Part shown: one piece after another, positions 37,533-64,000 of the stretch
How positions within the stretch are numbered: the first letter of the stretch is position 1
Layout of the letters: the number at the start of each line of letters is the position of its first letter
DNA from: Arcobacteraceae bacterium
GTDB lineage: Bacteria > Campylobacterota > Campylobacteria > Campylobacterales > Arcobacteraceae
Assembly: GCA_963662945.1 (NCBI GenBank)
Contig: OY759974.1
Span: forward strand, 224,001 to 288,000
Reading direction: 5' to 3'
Length of the DNA: 64,000 nucleotides
Notes under the pieces: model-generated
What the model saw: only the letters and a program-made list of their open reading frames with translations
Database searches by the model: none
What the model was told of the DNA's origin: nothing
Position numbers and translations under genes: made by a program

Positions 37533-38046
37533 AGTATTTACTGTAACAAATATCATCATACTTGTAAATATTTTTATGTTTATAGTTCAAAACAGTATCC
37601 ATAATGGTATTTTGTATTTTGGATTGAATATTTACTTTTTTAGAAATGAATTATATTATCAACTACTTTCAACTATGTTTGTTCATGGTGGAGTTGCGCA
37701 TATTTTGATGAATATGTTTGTTTTATTTCAATTTGGAAATATTATAGAAAGAGTTATCGGTATACCGAAATATCTCTTTTTATATTTTGTAGGTGGTGTT
37801 TTAACCTCAATTGGAAGTTTAGCTTATATGTATATTACAGGAGATTGGGCAAACTTAGTTGGTGCAAGTGGTGCTATAAGTGTTCTTCTTGGTTGGTTTG
37901 CGCTTAAAGACACATATCAAAGAAAAGGGATAATAGTATGGATACTTCTAATATCTTTTGCACCACTTTTATTGGGTATGCCTGTTGCTTGGTATGCTCA
38001 CCTCATAGGATTTGCTTTAGGATGGGCTTTAGGCTACATTTTATAA
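37522..38046 (+). CDS. Rhomboid intramembrane serine protease
   Basis: HILMN, GASG, AHLIG. Confidence 0.93.
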   Translation: MTNRVFTVTNIIILVNIFMFIVQNSIHNGILYFGLNIYFFRNELYYQLLSTMFVHGGVAHILMNMFVLFQFGNIIERVIGIPKYLFLYFVGGVLTSIGSLAYMYITGDWANLVGASGAISVLLGWFALKDTYQRKGIIVWILLISFAPLLLGMPVAWYAHLIGFALGWALGYIL

Positions 38047-38108
38047 GCATTTCAGAAGATCAAAAAAAATCTTAAATAATAGTCAAATAGGGTTAATTAG
38101 TGCCTATA

Positions 38109-38247
38109 AGGTACATATAATAGTACATAGTGTATAGTTCTTTTATGAATTTTATGTACCTATCTTATAAAATATGTACCTTTTGTTTTTAATAAAATTT
38201 CATTTTTAACAAAAAACTATGTACTTTTAGTATTTTTAATATGTACC
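38109..38247. repeat. Six TATGTAC(C/T) motifs, candidate integrase arm-type sites
   Basis: Inverted at 38109 and 38122; direct at 38153, 38173, 38218 and 38240. Confidence 0.65.
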
Positions 38248-38282
38248 TTTTCAAAATTCAACTTAATTTAAAAGGTTTAAAA

Positions 38283-39509
38283 ATGGCAAAATATGCAGGA
38301 ATAAGATCTGAAGTTATGAAGGATGGATCTGTTGCTATAATGGCTCAATTCAAACATTTAGGTGTTAGATATTCAAAAAAAAATCTAACTTCACTTTGGG
38401 GAATAAGAACTGAAAAAAAAGGTTTTGAAAAATTACAAGAAATAAAAGCTGAATTATCAGATAAAAAAGATCCTTTTGCAAGTTCAGCAAGTTCACTAAA
38501 TTTAATTTGGGAAAAAAAACTTGAGAAAAATAGAGCATCAGGTGAATGGGCTAAATCAACTTGTAAAAATTATTCTTATTTTTATAAAACTCATATAAGA
38601 ACTGCAATTGGTCAAAAGAAAATTGAAAGAATAACATATAATGATATTATGAATCTTTTTGATCATTTTAAAGCTAATCAAGCAAGTTCAAAAAATACTC
38701 TTATTGATATATTAAGACCTATTTTTAATGAAGAACAAATAAAAGGAAATATCACTAAAAATATATTTGATCCTATTAAAAAGTTTGTTGAAATTCCTCA
38801 AAAAGCACCTGTGTCTGATAGAACACATTATGAAGATATTGAAATAATTAGAAGAATTTATAATGCAATACCTGATTATAATCAAGCAAGAGTACATAAT
38901 ATTGAGATGCACCAAAACTTTTTATATATGTTGATTCTAAGTTGTCATAGAGTTGGTGAATTAACTAAATTAGAAAAAAAACATTGTAATTTAGAACATA
39001 GAATAATTGTTGCACCTAAAACTATTACTAAATCAAAAAGAGATTATCACTACCCTATTCCTGAAGAATGTATTTCATATATTGAAAATCATAAAGGTGG
39101 GGTTTTATTTCCAATAGCAAGAGGTGGAACATTAAGTAGAATATTTCAAAGAATACTTTTTCAAGCAGGTATTGATACAATTGAAGGTCATACTTTATCA
39201 AATCACTCTGTTAGAGCTATGATGATGAGTATAATGATTAATGATTTGGATATTAAAGAATCAATAGCTCACAATTGTCTTGAACATAAACCTCAAGATA
39301 TGAAGAAACATTATCATAATATTCCATATAGTGTTAAAGCTAAAACATTTAAGCAATATTGGGATTATATTAAAGAAATACCAATTGAAAATGAAGATAA
39401 TAAAAATACTGATGCAAATCTTGATGATTTAAAAGAATTGATCAGTAATTATAAAGAAGGATTATTGACTAAAGAAGAATTTGAAATAGCTAAAAAAATG
39501 ATATTATAA
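38283..39509 (+). CDS. Tyrosine recombinase/integrase with C-terminal SHOCT-like tail
   Basis: HRVGEL (R), TKSK (K), HSVR, LEH, HY; tail LKELISNYKEGLLTKEEFEIAKKMIL. Confidence 0.88.
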   Translation: MAKYAGIRSEVMKDGSVAIMAQFKHLGVRYSKKNLTSLWGIRTEKKGFEKLQEIKAELSDKKDPFASSASSLNLIWEKKLEKNRASGEWAKSTCKNYSYFYKTHIRTAIGQKKIERITYNDIMNLFDHFKANQASSKNTLIDILRPIFNEEQIKGNITKNIFDPIKKFVEIPQKAPVSDRTHYEDIEIIRRIYNAIPDYNQARVHNIEMHQNFLYMLILSCHRVGELTKLEKKHCNLEHRIIVAPKTITKSKRDYHYPIPEECISYIENHKGGVLFPIARGGTLSRIFQRILFQAGIDTIEGHTLSNHSVRAMMMSIMINDLDIKESIAHNCLEHKPQDMKKHYHNIPYSVKAKTFKQYWDYIKEIPIENEDNKNTDANLDDLKELISNYKEGLLTKEEFEIAKKMIL

Positions 39510-39512
39510 AAA

Positions 39513-39537
39513 ATCCCCACTTTAAAAAAGTGAGGAT
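39513..39537. terminator. Hairpin family T1 (ATCCCCACTT..AAGTGAGGAT); related copies at 40930, 57426 and inverted at 50705
   Basis: Stem-loop at gene ends, reused four times. Confidence 0.65.
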
Positions 39538-40152: not shown

Positions 40153-40812
40153 TTAATCCTTACACATTTGATCTTTTATTTTTAAAGAACCAAATTTTAT
40201 AAGAACTTTATCTGCCCCTTCAAAATCATCTTCTAATATATAAGATAGTAAATGAGCAAATTCACCATTATAAAACACAATTTTCTTTAATTTTGAAGAA
40301 TTTATATCTGACATACTTTTTAAAAGATTATAAGCATTTAAACTCTTATTTTCAGATATGTTATATTCTATTACACTTGTAAGAAGATTTGCTCTATCAT
40401 TTTTTGATTTGTTTGGAGTTATGATTACATAAGAACCATTTTGTTTCATTAGCATATAGTCTTTATTTGCTCTTTTTATACTTGCTTCATCAATTATTGT
40501 AGTAATACCTATATATGAATATAATAAGTTGATATTTTGCTCTTTTTCATATGTCTTATAAATATGCTTGGTGTAAGAATCTAATTGCTTACAAATAGAT
40601 TTTCCCTTATAAATATCTAATAAAGAACAATCTTCTGTTTTGTCATAACCTAATAACTCAAATGTTTCTTCTCTCTGTATATCAAAATAAGTGTCTTTCA
40701 TTATTTTTATAACTTTCTGATCAGTTTCTTTTTCACAATTTATTTCATCTGCCATTGCACTTGTTGATAATACACCTATTAGTGCTATTGTTGTTATTGT
40801 TTTTTTTAACAT
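40153..40812 (-). CDS. Secreted hypothetical protein, KKTITTIAL paralogue family
   Basis: Signal peptide shared with 56310, 57458 and 58138; HIYKTYEKEQNINLLY motif. Confidence 0.75.
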   Translation of the reverse strand: MLKKTITTIALIGVLSTSAMADEINCEKETDQKVIKIMKDTYFDIQREETFELLGYDKTEDCSLLDIYKGKSICKQLDSYTKHIYKTYEKEQNINLLYSYIGITTIIDEASIKRANKDYMLMKQNGSYVIITPNKSKNDRANLLTSVIEYNISENKSLNAYNLLKSMSDINSSKLKKIVFYNGEFAHLLSYILEDDFEGADKVLIKFGSLKIKDQMCKD

Positions 40813-40971
40813 ATTTTGTTTCCTTTGTATTATAAAATTTAATTTGAGTTGTTTAACTCTATTGGGTTATAGTATTTCATTAATGATAATTATTAAAAAT
40901 GTGAGTTAATTAGAAAAAAGGCAAAAAAAATCCCCACTTAGTAAAAAGTGAGGATTATATGAGTGATTTAG

Positions 40972-41948: not shown

Positions 41949-42353
41949 TTATGATGCTAAAAAATAGGTATCTTCATTATATTCTAATTGATCATTTAGA
42001 TCATTTTGTTCTAATAAATAATCTAAACTAAAAATATTTTCATCTTTATAATTATTTGATTCTAATTCATTTGATTCAAATATTACTGTTGAAATATCAA
42101 CACCTTCAAGATTTACATTTGAGAGATCACAACCTTCTAAAATAGTATTATTTAAAGTTGAACCTTTTAAATTTGCTCCTGATAAATTACAATAAGATAA
42201 ATCTGCACCTGTTAAATTACAATTTGATAAATCACAATTTGAAAGATCACTTCCAATAAATTTTGAACCTGTTAGATTTGTGTTTTTAAATGAAGTACCT
42301 CTGAAATTTACACACATAAATTCTTTTTTATTTGTTTTAATATTAATTGACAT
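41949..42353 (-). CDS. Pentapeptide-repeat protein with acidic tail
   Basis: (A/C/S)(D/N)L(S/T)x repeats. Confidence 0.9.
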   Translation of the reverse strand: MSINIKTNKKEFMCVNFRGTSFKNTNLTGSKFIGSDLSNCDLSNCNLTGADLSYCNLSGANLKGSTLNNTILEGCDLSNVNLEGVDISTVIFESNELESNNYKDENIFSLDYLLEQNDLNDQLEYNEDTYFLAS

Positions 42354-44648: not shown

Positions 44649-44674
44649 TAATAATAAAAGTATAGACTTCAAAA

Positions 44675-45657
44675 TAATAAACTGAAATATTCAACAAATA
44701 AAATTTAATCAAAATTCAATCAGATTTTCTTTTATAAAAAAATTTTACAACTTTTGGAAACTGGAAAATGCAACAAATGAAATTTCTATGCCTTTTATAT
44801 ACTATTTATTGGGTATGTTCAAAATTATTGCCTTCTCTATCTCAACAAAAGGAAAGTAGTTAAAAAAAAGGTGGTAAAAATATCCAACTTAAATATGAAA
44901 AGGTGGTAAAAATGTCCAACTTAAATTTAACTTAAACTTAATTTATTCAATTTTCTTATGTTTAATAAACTGAAATATTCAACAAATAAAATTTAATCAA
45001 AATTCAATCAGATTTTCTTTTATAAAAAAATTTTACAACTTTTGGAAACTGGAAAATGCAACAAATGAAATTTCTATGCCTTTTATATACTATTTATTGG
45101 GTATGTTCAAAATTATTGCCTTCTCTATCTCAACAAAAGGAAAGTAGTTAAAAAAAAGGTGGTAAAAATATCCAACTTAAATATGAAAAGGTGGTAAAAA
45201 TGTCCAACTTAAATTTAACTTAAACTTAATTTATTCAATTTTCTTATGTTTAATAAACTGAAATATTCAACAAATAAAATTTAATCAAAATTCAATCAGA
45301 TTTTCTTTTATAAAAAAATTTTACAACTTTTGGAAACTGGAAAATGCAACAAATGAAATTTCTATGCCTTTTATATACTATTTATTGGGTATGTTCAAAA
45401 TTATTGCCTTCTCTATCTCAACAAAAGGAAAGTAGTTAAAAAAAAGGTGGTAAAAATATCCAACTTAAATATGAAAAGGTGGTAAAAATGTCCAACTTAA
45501 ATTTAACTTAAACTTAATTTATTCAATTTTCTTATGTTTAATAAACTGAAATATTCAACAAATAAAATTTAATCAAAATTCAATCAGATTTTCTTTTATA
45601 AAAAAATTTTACAACTTTTGGAAACTGGAAAATGCAACAAATGAAATTTCTATGCCT
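44675..45657. repeat. Tandem array of a 288-bp unit (3.4 copies), each full unit with two iteron-like repeats
   Basis: Units start at 44675, 44963, 45251 and 45539; AAAAGGTGGTAAAAAT(A/G)TCCAACTTAAAT twice per unit with a 32-bp period. Confidence 0.92.
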
Positions 45658-46020: not shown

Positions 46021-47067
46021 TTGAATAATAAATTTACACATAGTATGAATTGTTTGCTTCCACAAGAACAAAATAGATTTAATAAACCAAATGTATTAAT
46101 TAAGTCACAATTATCACAAGCAATAACTCATAAAGAATCTGAAGTATTTTCAGTATTAGTTAGGATGTTGTTAATAACTGAAAGAAGTAATTTTGATTTA
46201 GTAACTGATTATGATTTAAATTGTGATTATGCAGATATAAATAATTTTATGTCTGATAATCATACATCAAAAGATATTAGAAAAATTCTTGAAAAATTAT
46301 TAAATACAACAATCAGATTTAATTATATACATAATGGTAAATGTAGAATTAGAAATACAAAAATAATTACAGCATATGAAGATAGTAAAGGGAGATATGA
46401 TAAAGCAAGTATCTCATTTGATCATAAACTAATAAAAGTATTAATTGAAAAGGTATATCCATATACAAAATTAAATGAAATTGAGCAATATAAATTATCT
46501 AATATATATTCAACAACTTTTTATGAGTATTTTAAATTAGCTCTTGGTAATAAATTGAGCAATATAAAGTATTTTTCAGAATCAGAATTAAGAAAAAAGT
46601 TTTTTTTAGAAAATAAATACAAAAATATTAAAGAGTTTAATAAGTTTGTAATTAAAAAAGCTTTAACTGAAATAAATAGTCACACATCATTAAATATTGA
46701 ATATAAAGTTGAAAAAGATGAAATATCAAATGAAAGAATATATAAATTTAAAATTGAAGATATTCCTATGACTGAAAATATTTTAAATATTTCAGAATTT
46801 AAAAATCTGATCAAAAATATGTCTAAAAAAAATAGAGAAATTATTTATAAATATAGAAATAATAACTATTATCTTGGTGAACAATTAGACTTTTATGCTA
46901 CAGGAAAAATACTTTGGATTATTGAAAATAGTGATAAAACAACTTCAAAAATTATTGCTACTAAAATTTGGAATAATCTTTATAAAGAATATTTACAAAA
47001 TAGTGAGCAGTTTGCTGAAAAATATTATGATTTATCATATAAAGAATTATTAGAGGATGGAAAATAA
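46021..47067 (+). CDS. Plasmid replication initiator (Rep_3/RepB-like)
   Basis: KPNVLI, LSNIYSTTFYE, ELRKKF..Y..FNKFVIKKALTEINSHTSLNIEY; iterons upstream. Confidence 0.8.
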   Translation: MNNKFTHSMNCLLPQEQNRFNKPNVLIKSQLSQAITHKESEVFSVLVRMLLITERSNFDLVTDYDLNCDYADINNFMSDNHTSKDIRKILEKLLNTTIRFNYIHNGKCRIRNTKIITAYEDSKGRYDKASISFDHKLIKVLIEKVYPYTKLNEIEQYKLSNIYSTTFYEYFKLALGNKLSNIKYFSESELRKKFFLENKYKNIKEFNKFVIKKALTEINSHTSLNIEYKVEKDEISNERIYKFKIEDIPMTENILNISEFKNLIKNMSKKNREIIYKYRNNNYYLGEQLDFYATGKILWIIENSDKTTSKIIATKIWNNLYKEYLQNSEQFAEKYYDLSYKELLEDGK

Positions 47068-47675: not shown

Positions 47676-48305
47676 ATGTTAAAGCTAACAGAAACTAAAA
47701 TCATAAATAATAAAAATCTAACTGGTGAATTTGAAAAATTTCAAAATTCTGAAACATATAAACATACTGAAAGAGTTGCTTATCACTCTCATATCATAGC
47801 AAAAAAATTAGGAATGACTGAAAAAGAATCTCAAAGAATTTTTGATATTGCTCCTTATCATGATTTTGGTAAAATGGTAATTGATGAAAATATTCTTTAT
47901 AAAGAATCTCAATTAACAGATGAAGAATTTAATATCATAAAATCTCATGCAACTCTTGGTTATGAAATTTTAAAAGATAATAATCATGACTTTTTTGATG
48001 AATGTGCTATTGTTGCTCACCAACATCATGAAAAATGGAATGGTACTGGTTATCCTAATAATTTAAAAGGTGAAGATATTCATATCTCTTCAAGAATTGT
48101 TGCTGTTGCAGATGTTCTTGATGCTTTAATCTCTAAAAGAGCTTATAAAAAAGCTTGGTCTCCTAAAGAAATTATTTTACATTTTGAAAAAGAAAAAAAT
48201 GTTTCTTTTGATCCTATTGTTGCTAAAACTGTTATTGAAAACTTCTCTGAATTTAATCACCAAAATCAAAAATTACACCATTTACAAACTTTAACAAATA
48301 TATAA
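47676..48305 (+). CDS. Stand-alone HD-GYP phosphodiesterase
   Basis: HTERV, HDFGK, HHEKWNGTGYP, VAVADVLDAL..RAYK. Confidence 0.92.
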   Translation: MLKLTETKIINNKNLTGEFEKFQNSETYKHTERVAYHSHIIAKKLGMTEKESQRIFDIAPYHDFGKMVIDENILYKESQLTDEEFNIIKSHATLGYEILKDNNHDFFDECAIVAHQHHEKWNGTGYPNNLKGEDIHISSRIVAVADVLDALISKRAYKKAWSPKEIILHFEKEKNVSFDPIVAKTVIENFSEFNHQNQKLHHLQTLTNI

Positions 48306-48750: not shown

Positions 48751-48885
48751 ATGAATACAACATTAAAAATATATGGAACATTAGATTTTACTAAGGATAA
48801 TATATTTGAAAAGGATTCTTTTCATTTATTAGATTTTATGCCAATATTTATTGAAGATACTGAAATAATGAGAGGTATAAAATAA
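48751..48885 (+). CDS. Small ORF, 44 aa (MNTTLKIYGTLDF...)
   Basis: Not in the ORF track; AAGGA RBS; TAATG coupling to the next gene. Confidence 0.55.
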   Translation: MNTTLKIYGTLDFTKDNIFEKDSFHLLDFMPIFIEDTEIMRGIK

Positions 48886-49277
48886 TGGATAAACTGATAA
48901 CTGCAATATTTCTTTTAAGTCCATCTTTATTACTTGTTATTTATTTACAAATGCAACAAACTCAAAAACTTGATAATCAAGTTGATAATACAAAAATTGA
49001 ATTCAAAAAAGATCAACATAAATTTGATGAAGATTTTTATTTTGAGAAAAGTCAATTTTCAGATAATAAAGAAGCAAAAGAATATTATCTTAATAAATCA
49101 AAAGATGCTCAATCTAAATTATTAAAAATTGAAGAAGCTAAGAAAAAAGCTGAACTTGAAGCAAAAAAACTTAAAGAAAAAAGTCAAAAAACTTTTGAAA
49201 AATTAGAAAAATCTATCAATGATTTAGATAGTAAAAAAATGGATAGTGAATTTGATAATGATAATTTTGATTTTTAA
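48885..49277 (+). CDS. Membrane-anchored coiled-coil protein
   Basis: N-terminal TM, K/E-rich helix. Confidence 0.65.
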   Translation: MDKLITAIFLLSPSLLLVIYLQMQQTQKLDNQVDNTKIEFKKDQHKFDEDFYFEKSQFSDNKEAKEYYLNKSKDAQSKLLKIEEAKKKAELEAKKLKEKSQKTFEKLEKSINDLDSKKMDSEFDNDNFDF

Positions 49278-49362
49278 CAATTATATTAAAAAAAAACTAT
49301 AACAAGGTGGTGATAGATTAAATTCTATCCCAACAAATTTTAAAAATAAAAGGAAACAAAAT

Positions 49363-49773
49363 ATGTTTGGACAAAATAAATATACAAATGAATCAACTGA
49401 AACAAAAGAAGTTGAAGTAAAACAGGAAGTTAAACAAACTGTTGAAGAAAAAGTTGCTGAAGCTAAAAAAGTTGAAAATAAATCAACTAAAAATGAAACA
49501 AGATTAGAATCTTTACAAAGAAAATTGAAAGATGCTGAAGCTAAAAGAAATGATGATGAAAAAATCATCAAAGAGGATGCTAAATCAAAAATTGATGTAG
49601 TGAAAGAAAGATTTTATAAAGAAAAAGAAAGATTAGAAAAACTGATCAAAGTTGAAACTGATAAATCTGATAAAAAAACTGGTAATGAGTTAAGAGATAT
49701 TGCTGATAAATTAGGTCTTTCAGTTGATGAATTATTAGCTAATCTTGAAAAGAAAGCTGAAAAAGCAAACTAA
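49363..49773 (+). CDS. Charged coiled-coil hypothetical protein
   Basis: RBS; C-terminal ELRDIADKLGLSVDELL. Confidence 0.65.
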   Translation: MFGQNKYTNESTETKEVEVKQEVKQTVEEKVAEAKKVENKSTKNETRLESLQRKLKDAEAKRNDDEKIIKEDAKSKIDVVKERFYKEKERLEKLIKVETDKSDKKTGNELRDIADKLGLSVDELLANLEKKAEKAN

Positions 49774-49802
49774 GAAGTTTTACTTCTTAGGAAAGGATAA
49801 AT

Positions 49803-50705
49803 ATGAAAAATCTAATAATAAGTTTTTGTTTATTATTTAGTGTTAATGTGTATGCCCTTGATATGACAAGTGGTAATACTGTTGATGAAAATTTTAAAGA
49901 AGATAAACAAGAAAGTGATAAAAGAAATAGAAATCTTTCTTCTTCTGAAGAAAAATCAAAAACAAGAACAACTTCAGATGAAATATCTAATGCAAATTCT
50001 ACTGATTTAAAACTAATTGGACACCATGATGCACTAATTGTTCTTATGGCACTTGAAAAAGCAAATATTGAACCTTTCAAATCTTGTGAAATATTAACAA
50101 AACCAAGATTATTAGATGATTTTGGATTGGGTTGTAAAAGTTGGAATGGAATGATTAATTCAAATAGATGTTCTGCATTAGAAGAAGCAGGAAAAGCAAA
50201 TTTAACAGTTGAAAATCTGATTGATACAACACTTGTTGATAATCCAATAGATTTTAGAGAATTTACAGCTTGTGTTGGTTTATATGGTGCATTAATTGCT
50301 CAATCATTAAAAGAAGGAACTTTTGATGTTCAATTAAAAGATGAAGAATTAAAAGATCAATATTTATCACTTAATGATTCAATTGAATTTGATGAATGTA
50401 GATTAGATGGATCAGTATCAAATATTACTTGTGGTGAAACTACAATTAAAATAGGAGCAAATCCATCACTTACTTATGGTTCTATCCCTTTATATAGTGA
50501 TAGTGTTTATTATGGTTATTCATTAAGTATTAATGATAATAAAAGTAAGAAAAATTCTGAAACATTTAGTAAATCTAAATCTAAAAAAAGAAGTGAAGCA
50601 AATTCTCTTGCTAAAACTATTACTAATAATAAAACTTTAGGTATTTCAACTGCTAAAAATAGTGGTGTAAATATTGGTTTGAGTAAATTCTTACCTAATA
50701 AATAA
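49803..50705 (+). CDS. Secreted Cys-containing hypothetical protein
   Basis: Signal peptide, several Cys, S/K-rich ends. Confidence 0.7.
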   Translation: MKNLIISFCLLFSVNVYALDMTSGNTVDENFKEDKQESDKRNRNLSSSEEKSKTRTTSDEISNANSTDLKLIGHHDALIVLMALEKANIEPFKSCEILTKPRLLDDFGLGCKSWNGMINSNRCSALEEAGKANLTVENLIDTTLVDNPIDFREFTACVGLYGALIAQSLKEGTFDVQLKDEELKDQYLSLNDSIEFDECRLDGSVSNITCGETTIKIGANPSLTYGSIPLYSDSVYYGYSLSINDNKSKKNSETFSKSKSKKRSEANSLAKTITNNKTLGISTAKNSGVNIGLSKFLPNK

Positions 50706-50920: not shown

Positions 50921-53900
50921 ATGAAAACAATAGCACCAATTAGCAGTTCAACTGCAAGTAAATATTACTATGAAAAAGATCCTATCTTTAATCCTGATGG
51001 TAAAGATCAAGCTAATATTGAATGGTATGGACAAATAGCAAAAGATTTTGGTATTGAAGGCAAAAATATTACAGGAGAAGAAGCTTACAATCTGTTTCAA
51101 GGTAAATCATTAGATGGTGAGGAACAATTATTAGATAGATCAAAATCTATAACAAGTGGTAATGAAAGAGCTGTATTTGATGCAATTTTAGCACCACCAA
51201 AACCTGTTTCAGCATTAGGATTAATGGAAGGTGGTGATAAAAGAATACTTGAACTTCATAAACAAGCTGTAAAAGCTACTATTGAGCATACTGAAAAAAA
51301 TATAATTGCTACAAGAGGTTATATTAAACAAGAAGATGGTTCTACTAAAAGAGAAACATATAAAACAGGTAATGCTTTGATTGCAAGTGTTAGTCATAGC
51401 ACTAATAGAAATAATGATTTGCATATGCACAATCATATGCTTATTTCAAATATGACTTATGATAAAAATACTAATTCTTATAAATCTTTAAATTTGGATT
51501 TTGTAAATGATCCAAAAGAAATGAACTCTGTTTATCAAAGTGAAATGATGAAAGGTATGAGAGAATTAGGTTATCAACTTGAAATTAGAGATAATGGTGC
51601 TTGGAATGTGGTTGGTTTTGATGAAAAAACAATTGAAGCAATGAGTACAAGAAAAGAAGAAATTGTTGATGCTAAATCAAAATTAGATTCTGATAATATT
51701 AATAAAATGACTAATAGAAAATTAGGATATGAAACTAAAAATGATAAAAATCCTAATATTACAGAAAAAGATATTCAAGAAAGAGCAAAAAATCAATTAG
51801 CTTCTGTTGGTACTACTATTCAAGAATTAAAAGAAAATGCTTTAAATCAGGGAAAATATGTTAATTATTTCTCAAGTGCAAAAGAAGTATTAGAATATAC
51901 TGCTGAAAAACTAACTCAATCAGATGCAAGATTTACTGAAAGAGAATTATTGAGTGCTGCTTCAGAAGTTGCACAAGGTGAATTTACTCATAAAGAATTA
52001 AAAAATGAATTAAGTAATGTAAAAAAGATTGGACAAAAAGAAAATAATGAACTTAAAAGATTAGGAACTGATCAAAAAGGTAATGAAGTTTTTACTACTA
52101 AAGAGATGCACCAAATTGAGAAAGAAAATATTCAATCTGTTAAAAATAATATTCAAGTTAATGGAATTATGACTAAGGAACAGGCTGAAGAAGCATATAA
52201 AGATTTTGCTAAAGAATATTTTGAACTTACAAAAGGTCAAAAAGATGCAGGTTTTCAAATATTAACTTCTACTGATCAAATTGGTGCAATTCAAGGTGAT
52301 GCAGGTACAGGTAAAAGTACAATGCTAAAATTTGTTGCTCATGCACTTGAATATCAAAATAGTAATGTTAAAGTTGCAGTTTCATCTTTAAGTAATAAAG
52401 CTGTTGAAGGTGCAAAAGGATTTTCACAAACTAAAGATGGTAAATCTTTTGAAGGTAGAACACTTCATAACTTAACTAAACAAGATGGTTTAAATAACTT
52501 TGTTAAAGGTGATCAAAAAGGACAAACTCAAAGAGTTAAAGATATTTCAAAAAATTTGAATGATATTCATTTATCAACTGGTAGTAAATCATTTAGTAAT
52601 AATAAAGGTTTTTCTATTGATCCAATGAATAAATTCTCAATAAATAGTTTTAAAAATTTTGAAACTTCAAGTAAAAGTTCAAAAACTAATTATCTTACTG
52701 GTTCTACTACTTATAAAAAAATAACAAAAGTTAAATCAGGTGAACATAAAGGTGCAACTAAAAATGAATCAACTACTGTAAATCAAAGTGGAACTTCTAT
52801 TAAATATCAATCAACAATTAAAGCAAATAATGGTGAAGTTTTTAAACAAAAAATTGAAACATTTAGTCCTGTAAAACTTGGTGGTAGAAATGGAAGTCCT
52901 ATTGCTAAGTTGGGTGAAAAAGTTATGTCAAGTTCTCATAGAGAAGTTAAAAATGATAAAGGTTTTTCTAAAGATAATAAATATTCAATTGCTGGAATTA
53001 CTTTTGAACATAAATCTGCACAAACATCTTATGGTGATCAACATAAAATGGGTATGAATATTTTAGGACTTGCTAAAGCTGAAAAAAATATTAGATCAAA
53101 TCAAACAAAAGATGGTTTAAAAGATACTACTGAAACAAAATTTAGTTTAATGGGATTAACTACTAAAAATATAGTTGAAGAAACTTATAATAAACAAGGT
53201 GAATTAACAAGTAAAGTATCAGTTAATGAAAAATCATTTATGGGTATTACTATTGGTAGAACCACTACATTAGATGATAAATCAAAAGATACTCATAATT
53301 ACTCAAAAAATGAAGATAAAATAAATAATCCAAAATTAGTTGATCAAAAAGAAATTTCTAATAAAGATGAAATGAAACAAGAATCAAAAAATATGGATAA
53401 AGATATAAAATCTGATAAAAAAGAAACTGCTTTATTGGTAGTTGATGAAGCAAGTATGATGAGTGCAAAAGATATGAATGTTATTTTTAAAGAAGTTGAA
53501 CAACTTAGTAAAGAGGGTTATAATGTAAGAGTTGAATTAATGGGTGATTCAAAACAATTACAAGCAATTGGTAGTGGTTCTTCATTTGATCAAATTAAAG
53601 AACAATTAGGTGATAAAGTAGCTGAAATGACTGAATCACAAAGACAAAGAAATACAACTGAACAAGGTATTACTAATCCTATTGCTCAAAAAGATATTAA
53701 AACTGCTTTTGATAATATGGAAAAAGCAGGTGCAATTAAAGAAGTTAAAGATCCTGATCAAAGAATTAATGCTGTGGTTGATGCAATTACTAAAAAAGAA
53801 AATGTTGATATTCAAAATTTTAAAGGTGAAACTGAAACTAAAAATATTGATTATAAAAATACAATTGGTTTAGCTTCTACTAACAAAGAAAATCAAGCAA

Positions 53901-54970
53901 TCAATGCAGGTGTTAGAAATGAATTAAAAAATCAAGGTTTAATCAAAAATGAAGTAAAAACTTCAATTAATGTTGGTGTGTTAAAAAATAGTATTAAACA
54001 ATCAAATGCTGTTAATTATGAAAAAGGTATGGAAGTAAAAACTTTTGAAAAAGTTAATGGAATGGCAAAAAATACTAATTATAAAGTAGTTGATATTAAT
54101 AAAAAAAATAATAGTTTAACACTAAAAACAACTGAACCTGATAAAAATGGTAATCATAAATATACTAATGTTAAAACAAAAGATATTGCAGGAAAAGTTA
54201 CTATTTCACAAAAAGAAGAAAGATCTTTTGGTGAAGGTGATAAAATTAGAATTACTGAAACTAATAAAAAAGCAGGTTTAACAAATTCTGATCAAGGAAT
54301 TATCACTAATATGGATCAAAAAAATAAAATTGCTACTATTGATTTTGGTGAAAAAGGAACTAAGCAAGTTGATTTAAAACAACAAAAAGGGATTGAATAT
54401 GGTTATTCAATGACAAATCACTCTGCTCAAGGAATTTCTGTTGATAGAGTTGTTGCAACTTTTGATACTTCAAAAAATGCTCAAATGAATACTATGAATA
54501 GTACATATGTTGCTATGTCAAGACAATCTGCAAAATCAGTTGCAATTACAGATAATAAAGAAAATTTGATGAATCAAGCAAGTAAAGAAGCTAAAAATGT
54601 TAGTACATTAGATAATCTAAAAGATGAAAAATCTAATAATAAAGTTGATCAAAAAACTGAAAATCAATCTAAAGAAAAGAATGATGTTTCAAAAGATAAA
54701 CTTGAAATTGATTCAAATAGTATCAAAGATGAAAAATCTAATAATAAAGTTGATCAAAAAATAGAAGATCAAAAAGATAAATCTGTTGATAAAGATAAAG
54801 TTAATAGAGTTGAAAGACAAACTATTAATGATTTAGGTGATTCAAAAAAATCTAATGATAAATTTAAAGCATTAGATAATATTAAAGATGAAAAATCAAA
54901 TGATATTTCAAAAGATAAATCTGATCAAAAAATTCAATCACCTCAAAAAGATCAAGGTATGTCAAGATAA
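50921..54970 (+). CDS. MOBF (TrwC/TraI-like) relaxase-helicase
   Basis: YYY..WYG, FDAILAPPKPVS, HSTNRNNDLHMHNH, QGDAGTGKST, VVDEASM, GDSKQLQAIGSG, YSMTNHSAQG, YVAMSR. Confidence 0.92.
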   Translation: MKTIAPISSSTASKYYYEKDPIFNPDGKDQANIEWYGQIAKDFGIEGKNITGEEAYNLFQGKSLDGEEQLLDRSKSITSGNERAVFDAILAPPKPVSALGLMEGGDKRILELHKQAVKATIEHTEKNIIATRGYIKQEDGSTKRETYKTGNALIASVSHSTNRNNDLHMHNHMLISNMTYDKNTNSYKSLNLDFVNDPKEMNSVYQSEMMKGMRELGYQLEIRDNGAWNVVGFDEKTIEAMSTRKEEIVDAKSKLDSDNINKMTNRKLGYETKNDKNPNITEKDIQERAKNQLASVGTTIQELKENALNQGKYVNYFSSAKEVLEYTAEKLTQSDARFTERELLSAASEVAQGEFTHKELKNELSNVKKIGQKENNELKRLGTDQKGNEVFTTKEMHQIEKENIQSVKNNIQVNGIMTKEQAEEAYKDFAKEYFELTKGQKDAGFQILTSTDQIGAIQGDAGTGKSTMLKFVAHALEYQNSNVKVAVSSLSNKAVEGAKGFSQTKDGKSFEGRTLHNLTKQDGLNNFVKGDQKGQTQRVKDISKNLNDIHLSTGSKSFSNNKGFSIDPMNKFSINSFKNFETSSKSSKTNYLTGSTTYKKITKVKSGEHKGATKNESTTVNQSGTSIKYQSTIKANNGEVFKQKIETFSPVKLGGRNGSPIAKLGEKVMSSSHREVKNDKGFSKDNKYSIAGITFEHKSAQTSYGDQHKMGMNILGLAKAEKNIRSNQTKDGLKDTTETKFSLMGLTTKNIVEETYNKQGELTSKVSVNEKSFMGITIGRTTTLDDKSKDTHNYSKNEDKINNPKLVDQKEISNKDEMKQESKNMDKDIKSDKKETALLVVDEASMMSAKDMNVIFKEVEQLSKEGYNVRVELMGDSKQLQAIGSGSSFDQIKEQLGDKVAEMTESQRQRNTTEQGITNPIAQKDIKTAFDNMEKAGAIKEVKDPDQRINAVVDAITKKENVDIQNFKGETETKNIDYKNTIGLASTNKENQAINAGVRNELKNQGLIKNEVKTSINVGVLKNSIKQSNAVNYEKGMEVKTFEKVNGMAKNTNYKVVDINKKNNSLTLKTTEPDKNGNHKYTNVKTKDIAGKVTISQKEERSFGEGDKIRITETNKKAGLTNSDQGIITNMDQKNKIATIDFGEKGTKQVDLKQQKGIEYGYSMTNHSAQGISVDRVVATFDTSKNAQMNTMNSTYVAMSRQSAKSVAITDNKENLMNQASKEAKNVSTLDNLKDEKSNNKVDQKTENQSKEKNDVSKDKLEIDSNSIKDEKSNNKVDQKIEDQKDKSVDKDKVNRVERQTINDLGDSKKSNDKFKALDNIKDEKSNDISKDKSDQKIQSPQKDQGMSR

Positions 54971-58135: not shown

Positions 58136-58137
58136 AA

Positions 58138-59005: not shown

Positions 59006-59518
59006 TTATGCTACTCTGTATATTCTCCCATTATGTAAATCATAATCAAAAGATAAATCACTTGCCATTGCATCAACATCAAGATAGTTTTCTAAATGTG
59101 GTGGTATTTCTCCAAATAAACCTTGATCAATAAATTCCCAAGCTAAATCTTTGAAATTATCATAATCATAAACTTCTAAATCATCAACTTTATTAATTGC
59201 TTCTTCTACTGAATAATTTAAACTATCTGTTAAATATGATAAACTTTCTATCTGATCATCATCTAAATCTAAATTATTATATGTATTAAATACTTCTTCA
59301 ATATTTGAATTTTCTGTAATAATTCCTAAAAAATCATTTTCCCAGTCTGCCATAAATAGTTCTAAATCATCTGAATTAAGTCCATTTAGTCTTTTAGCTT
59401 CTTTTACATACTCATAAATCTCTTCTATATCTGTTTCTTGATCAAACCATTTACATAATAATATTCCTCCATTGTTATATAATTCCCATTCTTCTACTGC
59501 TATACTTAGATTTTCCAT
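59006..59518 (-). CDS. ardA: Antirestriction protein ArdA (type I RM DNA mimic)
   Basis: YNNG..W, ELFMADWE, GEIP..L.NYLD..A.A.DL; very acidic. Confidence 0.88.
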   Translation of the reverse strand: MENLSIAVEEWELYNNGGILLCKWFDQETDIEEIYEYVKEAKRLNGLNSDDLELFMADWENDFLGIITENSNIEEVFNTYNNLDLDDDQIESLSYLTDSLNYSVEEAINKVDDLEVYDYDNFKDLAWEFIDQGLFGEIPPHLENYLDVDAMASDLSFDYDLHNGRIYRVA

Positions 59519-60065
59519 TGTAATTTCCTTATAAAATGATTTTTCCTTTTAGAAGATTTTTTTAAGAGGGCTTGGAGATTTTTGTAATAACTTTTAATTA
59601 AGTTAAAACAATCCTCACCCTTTTAATCAACTTTCAGGATTTTTCCCCTTAGTTAGTTTCTTCAATCAGGCTTTGAAAATTAAATTGTCATTTTCATAAC
59701 TTAGAATAAAATACAAATTAGTATAATTTTATATTTAGTGTAAGTTTGCAATATGTAAGATTTGAATTGGAAAAGTTTGAAGAAACTCAATAAGATGAAA
59801 AATAAAAGTTGATCAATAAAGGTGATTGGTTTTATTAATGATATGTAATAAAAAGTTATTACCAAAATTTTAGTTTTTTGTGTTTGAATGTAATGAAAAC
59901 TTATATTATTTGATCAAAGTTTAAATGCTAAGTATTTATAATTTATGTTCTTGATCAAATACCTTGAAATTTTTTTGTTTCTTTTTTAAAAGAAATATTC
60001 ATATTTAAAAATATGAATAATGTTTTAATATATAAAAAAGGTAAATACCATTTATATATATTATT
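59516..60065 (-). promoter_or_regulatory. Conserved upstream repeat with long stem-loop (Frpo/ssi-like), copy 1
   Basis: Homologous to 61990-62527; arms at about 59580-59665 and 59777-59868. Confidence 0.7.
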
Positions 60066-60070
60066 AATTA

Positions 60071-60250
60071 AGTATCTGAATAAAGTTGTTGAAACAAGTC
60101 AAGATTTTTAATTATCCTTGTGAAGAGAGTATTGCCAAATACTTAAATATTATCATAGAGATATGAAATATTTTTCTGATCAAAAAAACCATAACAAATA
60201 ATTCAAATGATGAAAAAAATACTTCATAGTATTTTTGTAATCTTTTGTTT
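60071..60250. repeat. Non-coding repeat module, copy C (diverged hairpin)
   Basis: Shares AGTATCTGAATAAAG...CTGATCAAAAAA with copies A and B. Confidence 0.85.
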
Positions 60251-60327
60251 AATTACCTTTCAAATAATAATGGATTTTTTCAAGGTCTTTATTGACTTTA
60301 TCCATTGCACCTAATAGTGCTTCATTT

Positions 60328-61584: not shown

Positions 61585-61992
61585 TTAAAAAGGAACTTTA
61601 TCTGCACTTTTTTCTGCTTCTATTTGTTCATTAATAATTTGAGATAACATCTTTTCTTGAACATTATCTTCAACTAATTGTTGTCTGTTATATACTGTGT
61701 AATATCTTACTGTTTCATCTTTCTTAGTAAATAATTGAACTCCATATTGTTTATCATCTTTGAATGTTAAATCCATTTCATCCATATCTTTTTGAGTTAG
61801 CCAAGTATTATCTGAATAGTTTTCTTTTTTAGCTCTCAAATCTAATAATTTTAAATTTAAACCTTTATATTCATTACCTTTAATACTTGTATGTACTTCT
61901 ATGTTACTATTGTGATTAGATACACTTATAATTGCTCTTTTGTAAATATCATTGATATTAAAAGTCTTTGCTGTTTTAGTTGTTGTTGTCAT
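61585..61992 (-). CDS. ArdC N-terminal (ssDNA-binding)-like protein
   Basis: GNEYKGLN...Y.D..WLT...YYTVYN..Q matches the ArdC-N pattern; no metalloprotease-like C-domain. Confidence 0.65.
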   Translation of the reverse strand: MTTTTKTAKTFNINDIYKRAIISVSNHNSNIEVHTSIKGNEYKGLNLKLLDLRAKKENYSDNTWLTQKDMDEMDLTFKDDKQYGVQLFTKKDETVRYYTVYNRQQLVEDNVQEKMLSQIINEQIEAEKSADKVPF

Positions 61993-62527
61993 TGTAATTT
62001 CCTTTTAAAAATGTTTTACCTTTTTTGAAGATTTTAAGAGGGTTTTGGATGATTTGTTTAAACTTTTAATTAAGTCAAAACATATCCCCTCTTTTTCTTA
62101 CTTCAAGGTTTTACCTCTTCAGTTAGTTTCAATCAGGCTTTGAAAATTAAATAGTCAATTTCATAACTTAGAATAAAATATAAATTAGAATAATTTTATT
62201 TATAGTATAAGTTTGTAAGGTGTAAGATTTGAATTGGAAAAGTTTGAAACTCACTTAGAGTTAAAATGTAGTAAGAATAAAAGAGATATATGTTTTCTTA
62301 ATGGTATGTAATAAAAAGTTTAAATTAATCACTGTTTATTGTGTTTGAATGTAATGAAAACTTATATTATTTGATCAAAGTTTAAATGCTAAGTATTTAT
62401 AATTTATGTTCTTGATAAAATACCTTGAAATTTTTTGTTTCTTTTACAAAAGAAATATTCATATTTAAAAAATATGAATAATGTTTTAATATATAAAAAA
62501 GGTAAATACCATTTATATATATTATTA
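61990..62527 (-). promoter_or_regulatory. Conserved upstream repeat with long stem-loop (Frpo/ssi-like), copy 2
   Basis: Arms at about 62051-62132 and 62244-62330. Confidence 0.7.
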
Positions 62528-62711
62528 TTACTCTATGTAAATGAAAAACACAAAAGGTTACAAAAATGCTATGAAGCATTTTTTCCACCATTTGATAAAT
62601 TTGTTATGGAATAATGAATTGATAAGTGTTTTGAACTTTATCTTTATATTCTTTCAACTGTAAAGTTTTTTTCATAAGGATAATTAAAGAGCTTGAAAAG
62701 TTTCAATAACT
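62494..62711. repeat. Non-coding repeat module, inverted copy
   Basis: Matches 43672-43827; 62665-62711 is close to the reverse complement of the start of copy B. Confidence 0.85.
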
Positions 62712-62824
62712 TCTTTGAAAGTTCAATATTATTCTTTATAGTTTTGTCTTTTTCTCCTAATCTTTTTATATAACATAATATGTTGATCAAATCAACAAAT
62801 TTAAAAAATAAAAGGATAAAAGTT

Positions 62825-63583
62825 ATGGATATAACTCAAGAAAACAAAAATGATACACCAAGTTATCAACAAGGTGATAGTGTATATTCTCAAAATAAAA
62901 CTGTAGAGGATAATAAATCTGTATTAGATAATGTTGAAAACAAATCATCTAACAATGAAATTGAAAATACTTATTCAAGAGTTGGTCAAGGTCATCAAGA
63001 TTTAAGAGGTAGTGAATCTGCACTTGATCAGGCAACTGCTGAAATGTTTGATAGATGGGAATCTGAAAGAGAAGCAAAAGATAATCCTGTTGCTGAAAAA
63101 AAAGAAGATAATGAAGTTACTATGAATCAATCTGATAAAACTGAAGCAAAAGATATTGAAAATACAAATAATTCAATTTCAAATGAACAAAGATCAAATA
63201 CTTTTGAAGATATTACAACAAAAGATTTTAATAATGATATTTCAAATGAATTAGATAAATCTGCAAATAAAAATGATTTTGAAAACACTTCAAATGAACA
63301 AACTGAAACTTCTCAAAGATCAAATACTTTTGAAGATATTACAACAAAAGATTTTAATAATGATATTTCAGAAGAATTAGATAAATTTGCAAAAAGAGAA
63401 GATTGGGGTGAAGAGGTATCTGAAAAGATAGCTGATAGTATTGAAAAAGAATTTGAACAAAAATCAGATAATGAAGATAAATTTAGTGCTTTAAATGATG
63501 TTAAAGTTGCTGAAGAATCAATTGAAAAAATTGATAATGAAGCACAAAAAGAAAATAATTCAGAAATGGTTATGAGTAGATAA
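62825..63583 (+). CDS. Acidic low-complexity protein with an internal duplication
   Basis: RBS before MDITQ; QRSNTFEDITTKDFNNDIS.ELDK twice; ends VMSR. Confidence 0.7.
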   Translation: MDITQENKNDTPSYQQGDSVYSQNKTVEDNKSVLDNVENKSSNNEIENTYSRVGQGHQDLRGSESALDQATAEMFDRWESEREAKDNPVAEKKEDNEVTMNQSDKTEAKDIENTNNSISNEQRSNTFEDITTKDFNNDISNELDKSANKNDFENTSNEQTETSQRSNTFEDITTKDFNNDISEELDKFAKREDWGEEVSEKIADSIEKEFEQKSDNEDKFSALNDVKVAEESIEKIDNEAQKENNSEMVMSR

Positions 63584-63601
63584 ATATAAGGGATTTTACC
63601 C

Positions 63602-64000
63602 TTATATTACTTTTAGTAAATCTTTTTTCAATCCAAACATATCTTTATACATTTTCAAATAAATTTTATACATTTCATTATGTGGTTGATACATTTCAGT
63701 TAAAAATTTTCTATAAATATTTTCAATTTTATTGTATTCTAAATTATATTTATATTCTAATTCATCTTTAGTTAATGAATGAATATCAAATAAAAGACTT
63801 TTCTTATTTTCTCTTGCTATTAACTTAACATATGGTTTGCAACCTGTTAAAGCAATTCTCAATGATATTTTTTTTGTTCTAATTTTATATTGTTTAAAAT
63901 TCTCAACAAATTCATTTAATAAAGGTAATCCTTTTATATTAAATAAGTTTTTAAAAAAATTGTTTTGAGCTATAAAATCAATCTTAAAATTATACAACAT
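63602..64000 (-). CDS. 3' part of a hypothetical protein (cut by the window end)
   Basis: Open frame to the window edge. Confidence 0.55.
   Translation of the reverse strand: MLYNFKIDFIAQNNFFKNLFNIKGLPLLNEFVENFKQYKIRTKKISLRIALTGCKPYVKLIARENKKSLLFDIHSLTKDELEYKYNLEYNKIENIYRKFLTEMYQPHNEMYKIYLKMYKDMFGLKKDLLKVI

Follow-up and report, generated by a model that had tools for sequence, protein, structure and literature searches.

Phages and broad-host-range plasmids avoid restriction sites; staphylococcal phage K, for example, has no GATC. The mobile element described here, from an Arcobacteraceae genome, resembles them in that its short target words are missing beyond chance, in its ArdA and ArdC-N genes and in the depletion of other palindromes. 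It differs from them in that the missing word is a dinucleotide, CG, with none of about 600 expected copies present, and all 16 NCGN contexts are therefore gone. We know of no restriction enzyme whose target is the bare CG dinucleotide.

Under-representation of CG is described for Mollicutes with CpG methyltransferases such as M.SssI and M.MpeI (in passages of PMC9465063 and PMC11282364), the former giving 0.46-0.5 of the expected CG for their genomes. Parts of PMC11282364 report that vertebrate viruses suppress CpG and so escape ZAP or TLR9, and CpG-free vectors have been engineered (PMC2440937, PMC5070371). Like the Mollicutes genomes, the element is AT-rich prokaryotic DNA with under-represented CG, but their depletion is genome-wide whereas here the ratio is 0.00, confined to an island, in a host without a C5-methyltransferase. 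It shares with the viruses that a mobile genome sheds CG more than its host, although natural vertebrate viruses are CpG-depleted and not devoid, and their sensors are vertebrate; to our knowledge bacteria have no counterpart of ZAP or TLR9 sensing. As in the vectors, which are man-made, full CG-free coding proves feasible through synonymous codons. A literature search found no published precedent for such an absence of CG.

Extent and composition of the CG-free tract

The window, a 64,000-nt stretch of the 2,497,315-nt genome, was analysed together with the DNA that follows it; in the latter (L001), position 1 corresponds to genome 288001, or 64001 in window numbering.

37902..64000 (no strand): CG-free tract, in-window part; the whole tract is genome 261902-306656, to L001 position 18656

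Successive CGs at genome 261901 and 306657 are separated by 44,756 bp; elsewhere in the 2.5-Mb genome no gap between CGs exceeds 1,744 bp. The sequence-only reading had given 37901 as the position of the last CG and 37449 as that of the last CTAG, and counts over the window agree. It had proposed a CG-free element of about 26 kb; the absence holds but the size does not, as the tract ends 18.6 kb past the window, with the first CG at L001 18657. In the whole element (44,385 nt) both words were found to be entirely missing, with 0 CG against 608 expected from its own base composition, so that AT-richness is no explanation, as that reading had argued. At the CG ratio of the host genome (17,769 CG in 2,497,315 nt, o/e 0.34) about 209 would still be expected. 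Each of the thirteen 2-kb bins from 38001 to 64000 has 0 CG (21.6-35.1 expected) and 0 CTAG, placing the right boundary outside the window, whereas the 19 host bins in the window hold 5-22 CG each (o/e 0.15-0.55). The CG ratio of the in-window element part (26,098 nt, 23.4% G + C) is thus unlike that of the host part, 0.00 versus 0.31.

An assembly artefact was rejected: long ORFs are intact, arginine is encoded by AGR only, an independent metagenomic relative is alike, and independent contigs from four public runs (two samples of one study) show 0 differences among the long pieces listed.

Codon usage was surveyed in 38 ORFs (11,132 codons) of the element. Third positions are C in 9.5-10.9% of codons followed by A, C or T, but in 0 of the 1,515 followed by G; arginine is encoded by 273 AGA and 12 AGG codons and by no CGN, and no NCG codon is used. 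CG removal in genes therefore went through synonymous choices only. The non-coding DNA (7,893 nt; 767 C, 889 G) also has 0 CG where about 86 are expected, which excludes a purely translational cause. When hsdR and hsdM of another genome (G393), holding 72 CG, were compared with the element copies, CG at codon positions 1-2 corresponded to AG in 12 of 15 cases, at positions 2-3 to CA in 9 of 14, and across codon junctions (3-1) to TG in 27 of 43.

Genes, boundaries and insertion site of the element

The tract represents an integrative mobilizable element: in essence, a Rep3 plasmid that has integrated into a rhomboid gene at its 3′ end. Its features are as follows.

37939..38048 (+): attL region, present rhomboid 3′ end; its diverged counterpart lies at genome 306434-306543 (L001:18434-18543)
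38085..38131 (+): imperfect direct repeat of 47 bp, left copy, immediately within the end of the element; right copy L001:18334-18380
38241..39509 (+): tyrosine integrase (phrog_1 integrase, E 3e-19; Phage_integrase, E 1.9e-5, under the Pfam cut-off)
41949..42353 (-): pentapeptide-repeat protein (PF00805, E 2.9e-24)
44675..45657 (no strand): iteron-like tandem repeat upstream of rep, 3.4 perfect copies of 288 bp
46021..47067 (+): Rep3-type replication initiator (Rep3_C, E 1.5e-10; weak RepE/RepM matches)
47676..48305 (+): HD-domain phosphohydrolase (HD_5, E 1.6e-27)
48885..50705 (+): three genes preceding the relaxase gene, with no assigned function (130, 136 and 300 aa)
50921..54970 (+): MOBF (TrwC-type) relaxase-helicase, 1,349 aa (TrwC, E 1.4e-47; AAA_30, E 1.5e-29)
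59006..59518 (-): ArdA anti-restriction protein (PF07275, E 1.1e-14)
61585..61992 (-): ArdC N-terminal domain protein (PF08401, E 1.1e-6; 29.3 bits, cut-off 22.6)
63602..64000, on to L001:186 (genome 287602-288186) (-): T5orf172-domain protein (PF10544, E 8.6e-4; 20.2 bits, cut-off 20)
L001 224-2122 (-): TrwB/TraD-like coupling protein (TrwB_AAD_bind, E 8.6e-68)
L001 3525-4235 (-): remote MjaI-family nuclease (RE_MjaI, E 2.5e-10; 40.9 bits, cut-off 22.7)
L001 5685-7406 (-): 573-aa orphan
L001 7619-8287 (+): PARCEL/DUF285 protein
L001 8663-9673 (+): NPPF N6_Mtase-like methyltransferase (N6_Mtase, E 2.8e-11)
L001 9955-10545 (+): 196-aa protein, no family match
L001 10639-13335 (+): hsdR (ResIII, EcoEI_R_C)
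L001 13332-14504 (+): hsdS (Methylase_S)
L001 14504-15514 (+): PDC-S11 nuclease-like gene (PDC-S11, E 2e-119)
L001 15518-16990 (+): hsdM (N6_Mtase, E 1.1e-66; HsdM_N)
L001 17023-18294 (+): 423-aa membrane protein
L001:18434-18543: displaced native rhomboid 3′ end (attR)

A recombinase at one end, flanking repeats with an empty site, and a relaxase with a coupling protein were all found. The empty site is seen in a relative (G006), where the rhomboid gene adjoins the amine-oxidase gene; at the other nine rhomboid loci examined, no amine-oxidase or integrase gene is present within 1.5 kb. The right-hand rhomboid 3′ end is closer to that of the nearest relative, G013 (87 of 107 nt), than the left-hand copy, and the attL copy probably arrived with the element. 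The left 47-bp repeat shares an 18-nt exact core with its right counterpart at genome 306334, the match extending over about 47 nt, and may represent an integrase arm site. The 288-bp tandem repeat is a putative origin region, and we read the C-terminus of the 196-aa protein as putatively excisionase-like. A type I restriction-modification cassette (hsdR, hsdS, hsdM) is carried outside the window.

The integrase, the att duplication of a gene 3′ end, the relaxase, the coupling protein and Rep3 are shared with integrative mobilizable elements and MOBF plasmids. Unlike in MOBF conjugative plasmids, no mating-pore genes (T4SS, VirB4-type ATPase) were found by Pfam and NCBIfam across all but one (70 aa) of the ORFs of at least 58 aa, a result short of proof as several proteins are orphans. 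The relaxase is also distant: its best homologue anywhere is 60% identical, and no relative above 28% identity was present in 72,556 plasmid records. Many element proteins match no family in Pfam, NCBIfam and further searches, and repeated family and homology searches gave no usable match for the 573-aa orphan.

CTAG and other restriction-type sites

CTAG is absent from the in-window part (35.5 expected by the Markov model, 52.4 by base composition) and from the whole element (65.6, the Markov value of about 66, or 89.2). The stretch without CTAG measures 45,987 bp, against 5,958 bp for the next largest in the genome, and the host genome has 4,316 CTAG sites. CATG occurs 11 times where about 89-90 are expected, four of these inside the HD-domain phosphohydrolase gene. 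Also depleted are GGCC (0 versus 3-8 expected), ATGCAT (0 versus 8.6-13), GATATC (1 versus 18), GAATTC (1 versus 14) and CTCAG (2 versus 21); CCWGG and GGWCC were counted at 0 occurrences each. GATC is at expectation (149 seen, 146 expected), compared with an o/e of 0.34 in the host. Short palindromes in the element are thus far under Markov expectation, as in restriction-site avoidance, and with both ArdA and ArdC-N confirmed, the stealth context suggested from the sequence alone fits.

The element nuclease lies within an operon ending in the coupling protein gene. It exceeds the PF09568 gathering score, but a true MjaI-family orthologue scores 179.5 bits and has no BLAST likeness to it. The family is over cut-off in 4 of 401 genomes of the phylum, this host counted. 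Known CTAG systems carry adjacent beta-class m4C methylases (M.MjaI, M.MthZI, M.BfaI). No such cognate methyltransferase was found beside the element nuclease: the sole PF01555 frame is 0.85 Mb off and has two stop codons, and on the element the closest methylase gene, the N6_Mtase-like one, is 4.4 kb away. MjaI itself is recorded as CTAG-specific in parts of PMC11033074 and PMC5867850. The CTAG absence is probably separate, ordinary site avoidance linked to CTAG-specific restriction, with the element's own nuclease as a possible source.

Related CG-poor islands and the cause of the CG absence

Comparison with homologous elements, as envisaged in the sequence-only reading, found two more that are nearly CG-free. 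A 9-kb metagenomic fragment (L014) has 3 CG versus 150 expected and 0 CTAG versus 14-20; its relaxase is the 60% identical homologue, four genes are syntenic, and its counterparts of the 130-, 136- and 300-aa proteins are 30%, 39% and 53% identical in conserved order. An island at the same att site in another genus (G395) has 8 CG versus 259 expected, between flanks with 220 versus 1,091, and its integrase is 50% identical; GATC (3 versus 42) and GTAC (1 versus 23) are also rare in it. The cassette common to the element and this island (5,172 aligned nt) differs at 688 sites (13%). When the same 688 changes were re-placed at random, 2,000 permutations in both directions gave 33.4 +/- 4.9 and 36.6 +/- 5.3 CG, whereas 2 and 0 are seen, and no permutation reached the observed count in either direction. 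Evidently, CG avoidance went on while the shared copies diverged. CG scarcity is scattered patchily over both gene trees, and no protein common to all three CG-poor elements was seen, L014 being only a fragment. PDC-S11 is common to the element and the G395 island, and its homologues sit in CG-normal DNA (o/e 0.83, 1.23-1.26).

No agent reading bare CG was found in the element, the hosts or the methylase and MjaI-family searches of relatives. PF00145 C5-methyltransferases are absent from the host (G000) and from G395, and family scans of the element ORFs revealed neither these nor deaminases. Searching the element beyond the window, where a CG-directed enzyme had been suspected, brought to light the MjaI-family nuclease, which may bear on CTAG, but no C5-methyltransferase and nothing recognisable as CG-directed. 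C5-methyltransferases, HaeIII-like and HhaI-like methylases among them, occur in 70 of 121 family genomes. Six, from well over 100 matches, were tested and none had M.MpeI (PDB 4dkj, which we take to be this CpG enzyme) as best solved relative; with so small a sample, the family may still hold CpG enzymes. CpG methylases are described only in Mollicutes in passages of PMC9465063. The host has an Mrr_cat gene, and G395 has none. As a counterpoint to selection, 17,769 apparently unprotected CGs stay in the host chromosome.

We favour, at about even chances, continuing purifying selection against CG: restriction-site avoidance in an extreme form, reaching down to a dinucleotide. Zero standing CG with about 4,800 TG + CA precursors would require CGs to be lost over 1,000 times faster than they arise, a rate that selection should give easily and m5C deamination should not. 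Residence with a CpG m5C methylase, one of the causes proposed earlier, finds no support as the only one: the host lacks a C5-methyltransferase, and 0 of about 600 is beyond deamination-level decay. An enzyme that deaminates C in CG on a single-stranded intermediate of transfer or replication, either a deaminase or a methyltransferase working as one, turning CG into TG or CA without selection, is an unlikely cause of the whole pattern, although the strand asymmetry points to some mutational component. On the + strand TG exceeds CA (2,641 versus 2,216; o/e 1.31 and 1.13) irrespective of gene orientation (o/e 1.33/1.15 and 1.38/1.15 in + and - gene blocks) and in non-coding DNA (388 versus 262); NCA/(NCA+NCT) is 0.68 in - genes versus 0.52 in + genes, and with its relaxase and Rep3 the element transfers, and may replicate, via single strands. 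Part of the asymmetry is, however, a general T>A, G>C skew (0.41 versus 0.33 at four-fold sites without C at position 2); the G395 island shows little of it (992 versus 865); the CGN-to-AGR changes (12 of 15) are transversions and not what deamination yields; neither the element nor the host has a deaminase or C5-methyltransferase; and 0 of about 600, with 0-2 of about 35 new CGs, would by our estimate need decay more than about 250 times background. Selection and extreme hypermutation are indistinguishable from sequence alone.

That the element sheds the targets of its own nucleases, cutting CTAG and CG, is less probable still as a whole. For CTAG alone it is a serious possibility, somewhat short of even: the nuclease gene accompanies 0 CTAG, at two loci whose genes match the MjaI family more strongly, 3.3-3.5 kb of DNA holds no CTAG, and the G395 island, with no match to the nuclease, keeps 8 of 40 expected; but the remoteness of the nuclease and its lack of an adjacent methylase, in a host with many CTAG sites, weigh against it. 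For CG it is improbable, for despite the many proteins without family there is no candidate nuclease, PDC-S11 being found in CG-normal DNA, and no shared protein. Long evolution in an unsampled donor lineage with a practically CG-free genome, followed by recent arrival, is doubtful. The signature is foreign (23.4% versus 28.9% G + C, GATC unavoided), and CG is scarce in host genomes of the family in any case (o/e 0.12-0.79 over 51 loci, median 0.34); however, none of the 51 is near zero, avoidance persisted in islands of two genera through 13% divergence, and no near-CG-free organism was found in the literature, nor is one known to us. Least credible is that ordinary restriction sites (ACGT, TCGA, CCGG, GCGC, CGCG and others) add up to the loss. 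The host is most depleted in ACGT (0.17) and CCGG (0.19), and HhaI-like (GCGC) methylases are the biggest cluster (13 of 19) among the 20 best-scoring C5-methyltransferase loci in the family, but about two thirds of CGs are expected in non-palindromic NCGN such as ACGA/TCGT (140-410 by our arithmetic) and none is present, which leaves this reading close to refuted.

The remaining candidate causes are a CG-directed barrier, a mutator and self-immunity. Under purifying selection, the element would be one of a small, mosaic set of islands in the family Arcobacteraceae that are kept CG-free, and a barrier met repeatedly across its host range would act on CG-containing DNA. Such a barrier might read CG directly, or it might act after methylation of CG-containing sites in a donor, which would expose them to cutting by methyl-dependent enzymes, for instance the product of the host Mrr-family gene. 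The cost of any one CG would be small, and since its removal is almost free in coding DNA of 23% G + C, every CG would be lost. The absence or near-absence of CG in three mobile islands suggests that something acts against CG in such mobile DNA.

Extent, insertion site and gene content of the CG-free element

Counting over the complete host genome, a single contig of 2,497,315 nt (the window being G000:C1:224001-288000), revealed that the absence of CG and CTAG noticed in the sequence-only reading is real and stronger than first described. The last CG (window 37901) and the last CTAG (37449) reported there are exact, and neither CG (21.6-35.1 expected per bin) nor CTAG occurs in any of the 13 two-kb bins between 38001 and 64000. 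The proposed comparison with host DNA gave an observed/expected ratio (o/e) of 0.31 for the host half of the window versus no CG in the element. The whole genome has 17,769 CG (o/e 0.34); its largest gap between successive CGs is 44,756 bp (261901-306657) and the runner-up only 1,744 bp. Therefore, the CG-free tract is unique in the genome and extends 18.6 kb past the window end, which maps the right boundary as the sequence-only reading had suggested. For CTAG the two largest gaps are 45,987 and 5,958 bp. For the whole element of 44,385 nt, base composition predicts 608 CG, or about 209 if the host ratio is applied; the expectation for CTAG is 66-89. An artefact is ruled out by intact ORFs, by agreeing independent contigs and by the same property in an independent relative. 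The element was found in four public sequencing runs of one study, and short identical pieces were found at low depth in a single run of another, too few to point to a second host.

The insertion site is a rhomboid gene downstream of lon, which the element entered at the 3′ end. Roughly 110 nt of this 3′ end occur as two diverged copies, one at either end (genome 261939-262048 and 306434-306543), with a 47-bp imperfect direct repeat just inside each element end. The right-hand copy resembles the nearest relative's rhomboid gene more closely (87/107 nt), which indicates that the present 3′ end was supplied by the element and the native one displaced. In G006, a genome of the same genus, the rhomboid gene adjoins the amine-oxidase gene that forms the right flank of our element, and this is the empty site; at the other nine rhomboid loci examined, neither this amine-oxidase gene nor an integrase was found within 1.5 kb. 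No tRNA gene was found at the element. For the purpose of annotation, scanning for CG-free tracts places the element limits within about 150 bp of the att sites.

Features of the element (L001 is the DNA past the window end, its position 1 being genome 288001)
Inside the window: tyrosine integrase
Inside the window: pentapeptide-repeat protein
Inside the window: HD-domain protein
Inside the window: MOBF relaxase-helicase, 1,349 aa
Inside the window: ArdA
Inside the window: ArdC-N protein
Inside the window: Rep3 initiator, preceded by the 288-bp tandem repeat
Window 44675-45657: perfect tandem repeat, 288 bp x 3.4 copies, 100% matches, upstream of the Rep3 gene in DNA without ORFs
Window 40743-40835, 44121-44213, 57236-57328, 58066-58158 and 58362-58454, - strand: shared 5′ ends of five genes
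L001 224-2122: TrwB-type coupling protein
L001 3525-4235: remote MjaI-family nuclease
L001 5685-7406: 573-aa orphan
L001 7619-8287: PARCEL/DUF285 surface protein
L001 8663-9673: short NPPF methyltransferase
L001 10639-16990: type I R-M cassette with embedded PDC-S11 gene

No mating-pore genes were found on the element, which is therefore called mobilizable and not self-transmissible. Each 288-bp repeat unit holds a 32-bp doublet, and the array resembles iterons or an origin. PDB sequence and Atlas searches gave nothing specific for the 573-aa protein and the methylase. The five - strand genes have a near-identical 5′ end in common, with 60-94% identity over 93 nt; it seems to code for an N-terminus resembling a signal peptide, and these genes may form a secreted-protein or lipoprotein family on the element. 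Intergenic repeats of 55-190 bp in both orientations (families D5, D7, D9-D11, D13, D14 and I1-I9) are dispersed at window 43643-44661, 48330-48713, 56173-56290, 59661-60312 and 62128-62723. They account for the cross-joined contigs in the public runs, the joints and loose ends of which were left out of the analysis.

Mode of CG loss and other avoided words

Codons were counted in 38 ORFs (11,132 codons) of the element. C occupies the third position in 9.5-10.9% of codons before A, C or T, but in 0 of 1,515 before G; arginine is encoded by AGA (273) and AGG (12) with no CGN, and NCG codons number 0. The host tendency is alike but only about three-fold, with third-position C at 5.6% before G versus 14-19% before other bases. 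Non-coding DNA of the element (7,893 nt) likewise has 0 CG versus about 86 expected. The zero counts at codon junctions and in non-coding DNA rule out a translational cause, that is, rarity of CGN and NCG codons. All CGs being removable synonymously, the cost to proteins is nil.

On the + strand of the whole element (window 38049-64000 and L001 1-18433), TG outnumbers CA (2,641 versus 2,216), and does so in non-coding DNA as well as in blocks of + and of - genes. A general T>A and G>C skew at four-fold sites accounts for part of this asymmetry, and NCN codon families show a bigger shift than other families. The asymmetry fits strand-biased C-to-T change as the usual route of CG loss, which would act, for example, on the transferred or unidirectionally replicated strand; by itself it is compatible with selection as well as mutation driving the loss.

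Other words are also scarce: CATG (11 seen, 89 expected), GGCC (0, 3-8), ATGCAT (0, 9-13), GATATC (1, 18), GAATTC (1, 14) and CTCAG (2, 21), together with CCWGG and GGWCC, each with 0 occurrences as a count without computed expectation. Four of the 11 CATG sites fall inside one stretch of 170 bp in the HD-domain gene (window 47859-48027), a cluster that may stem from recent acquisition or exchange of this segment. GATC is at expectation in the element (149 seen, 146 expected) but depleted in the host (o/e 0.34), so that the element signature is foreign to this host. A D12-class (Dam-like) methylase match is located at genome 186,327-186,554 of the host.

Several other loci from Campylobacterota or related metagenomes, L024 (15.7 kb), L077 (15.6 kb), L118 and L119, contain 0 CTAG and normal CG; avoidance of CTAG occurs in this group independently of that of CG. 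The CTAG loss is best explained as an ordinary avoidance distinct from that of CG, and may be linked to the nuclease that the element itself encodes. MjaI is described as specific for CTAG, and its methylase as an m4C enzyme of the beta class (PMC11033074, PMC5867850). The element nuclease is a remote member of this family, without a beta-class m4C methylase partner. The host has a beta-class N6_N4 methylase frame (genome 1,145,692-1,146,924) with two TAA stops, probably a pseudogene.

Related islands and continuing avoidance of CG

Relaxase searches reached at most 28% identity in 72,556 plasmid records and 33% in 401 genomes of the phylum. In genome contigs a profile search gave no more than 36% and a single-protein search no close relative; viral contigs gave no relative. 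CG at the loci of these relatives in plasmids, phylum genomes and genome contigs is ordinary (o/e 0.44-1.18). Related loci bear the names Campylobacterales and Sulfurimonas, and distant relaxase homologues that of Aliarcobacter, which suggests Campylobacterota, probably Arcobacteraceae, for the host. Rep3 and the coupling protein had no close relatives among plasmids, nor had the coupling protein a relative in viral contigs, where HsdM identity was at most 52%. The best relaxase homologue in the protein database is 60% identical. Only one of 60 metagenomic relaxase loci fetched is CG-poor, the 9-kb fragment L014; o/e in the others is 0.30 to 1.23. Its relaxase is also 60% identical to ours, with four genes syntenic, and it has 3 CG versus 150 expected, 0 CTAG versus 14-20, GATC 6/29 and GTAC 1/10.5. 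In the relaxase tree our element, L014 and the fetched loci L019 and L026 form one clade (100/100), in which L019, a 1.7-kb fragment with CG o/e 0.31, is the sister of L014.

HsdM homologues are 91% identical in G395, a genome of another genus of the family, and 81% in the genome G393. The G395 gene lies within an 18-kb island (G395:C32:91300-109500) that likewise occupies the lon-rhomboid site and has a displaced rhomboid 3′ end on the far side. This island encodes an integrase, a type I R-M system with PDC-S11, a NikA/MobC-like gene and a Rep3 of its own; identities to our element are 50% for integrase, 87% for hsdR, 38% for hsdS and 91% for PDC-S11. It has 8 CG versus 259 expected, its flanks 220 versus 1,091 (o/e 0.20), and it keeps some CTAG (8/40) without an MjaI-family gene. 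Different islands at one 3′ site in two genera make this site an insertion hot spot. In our element the R-M cassette is found near attR, in G395 next to the integrase, and it has evidently moved between islands.

The G393 orthologues contain 72 CG, and the same positions in our cassette are AG, CA or TG, according to codon position. Between our cassette and that of G395, 688 of 5,172 aligned sites differ. When the same changes were re-placed at random over the shared cassette (2,000 permutations), 33-37 CG were created, versus 0 and 2 in the real cassettes, and none of the permutations was that low. Therefore, CG avoidance is continuing and is not one past event. Integrase matches numbered 22 in 17 of 184 family genomes, and a CG-free gene and inner flank were found only in our element and G395; in the integrase tree G447, a family genome with 8 CG in the gene, is the sister of G395. 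The CG-free trait is thus rare and patchy, and is gained or lost on short evolutionary scales.

Candidate agents and significance

Long residence with a CpG methylase had been suggested as a cause, and the search for C5-methyltransferases proposed with it gave no PF00145 match in the host. SRA and McrC gave no match there either, the latter a weak blank as the McrC profile was silent in the E. coli control too. The host has one Mrr_cat gene, of the Mrr family, at genome 2,401,480-2,401,827; neither a C5-methylase nor Mrr was found in G395. C5-methylases are frequent among genomes of the family, 70 of 121 having a match over cut-off. A CpG-type enzyme among them was not supported: six of more than 100 matches were compared with solved structures, and the nearest was HhaI, HaeIII, Dnmt1 or 3g7u, in no case 4dkj, which we take to be the CpG methyltransferase M.MpeI. 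Near-zero CG was not found among 51 family loci (lowest o/e 0.12). In the host all NCGN contexts are depleted (0.17-0.55), ACGT and CCGG being lowest. According to PMC9465063, prokaryotic CpG methylases are recorded from Mollicutes only, and those genomes retain CG at 0.46-0.5. PDC-S11 as a CG-directed nuclease was rejected, its 42-46% identical homologues residing in CG-normal DNA (o/e 0.83-1.26). Type I R-M was dropped as the cause, the two hsdS genes being only 38% identical though both islands are CG-free.

The interpretation with the best support is that selection against CG continues to act on mosaic mobilizable islands that form a small pool, the loss having been upheld in at least two host genera during sequence divergence. 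It is possible that a CG-specific mutator caused the loss, with which the strand-biased C-to-T route is compatible, or that it arose as self-immunity of the element; a CG-free donor host as the source of the islands is possible also, and the element signature is indeed foreign to the present host. The avoidance we favour is of the same kind as ordinary restriction-site avoidance, but its target is a dinucleotide and its form extreme. We know of no site avoidance that comes near what is seen here, where 44 kb of natural DNA of functional appearance lack one dinucleotide altogether, and no account of a natural CG-free prokaryotic element was found in the literature searched. Rather speculatively, an undescribed barrier in Arcobacteraceae or their neighbours might recognise bare CG in incoming or single-stranded mobile DNA, the mosaic islands having escaped it through complete CG loss, and the same force may underlie the CG deficit of these AT-rich chromosomes. 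A defence nuclease is one form that such a barrier could take, a targeted mutator another.

To our knowledge, no bacterial enzyme reads bare CG except the CpG methylases of Mollicutes, and the pattern thus marks a missing player, which may be a defence or a mutator directed at CG, or else a self-targeting weapon. These islands offer a handle for finding this agent, as one and the same DNA can be compared directly with and without CG, and the finding may also be relevant to the long-standing puzzle of CG scarcity in AT-rich bacterial genomes that lack CpG methylation.
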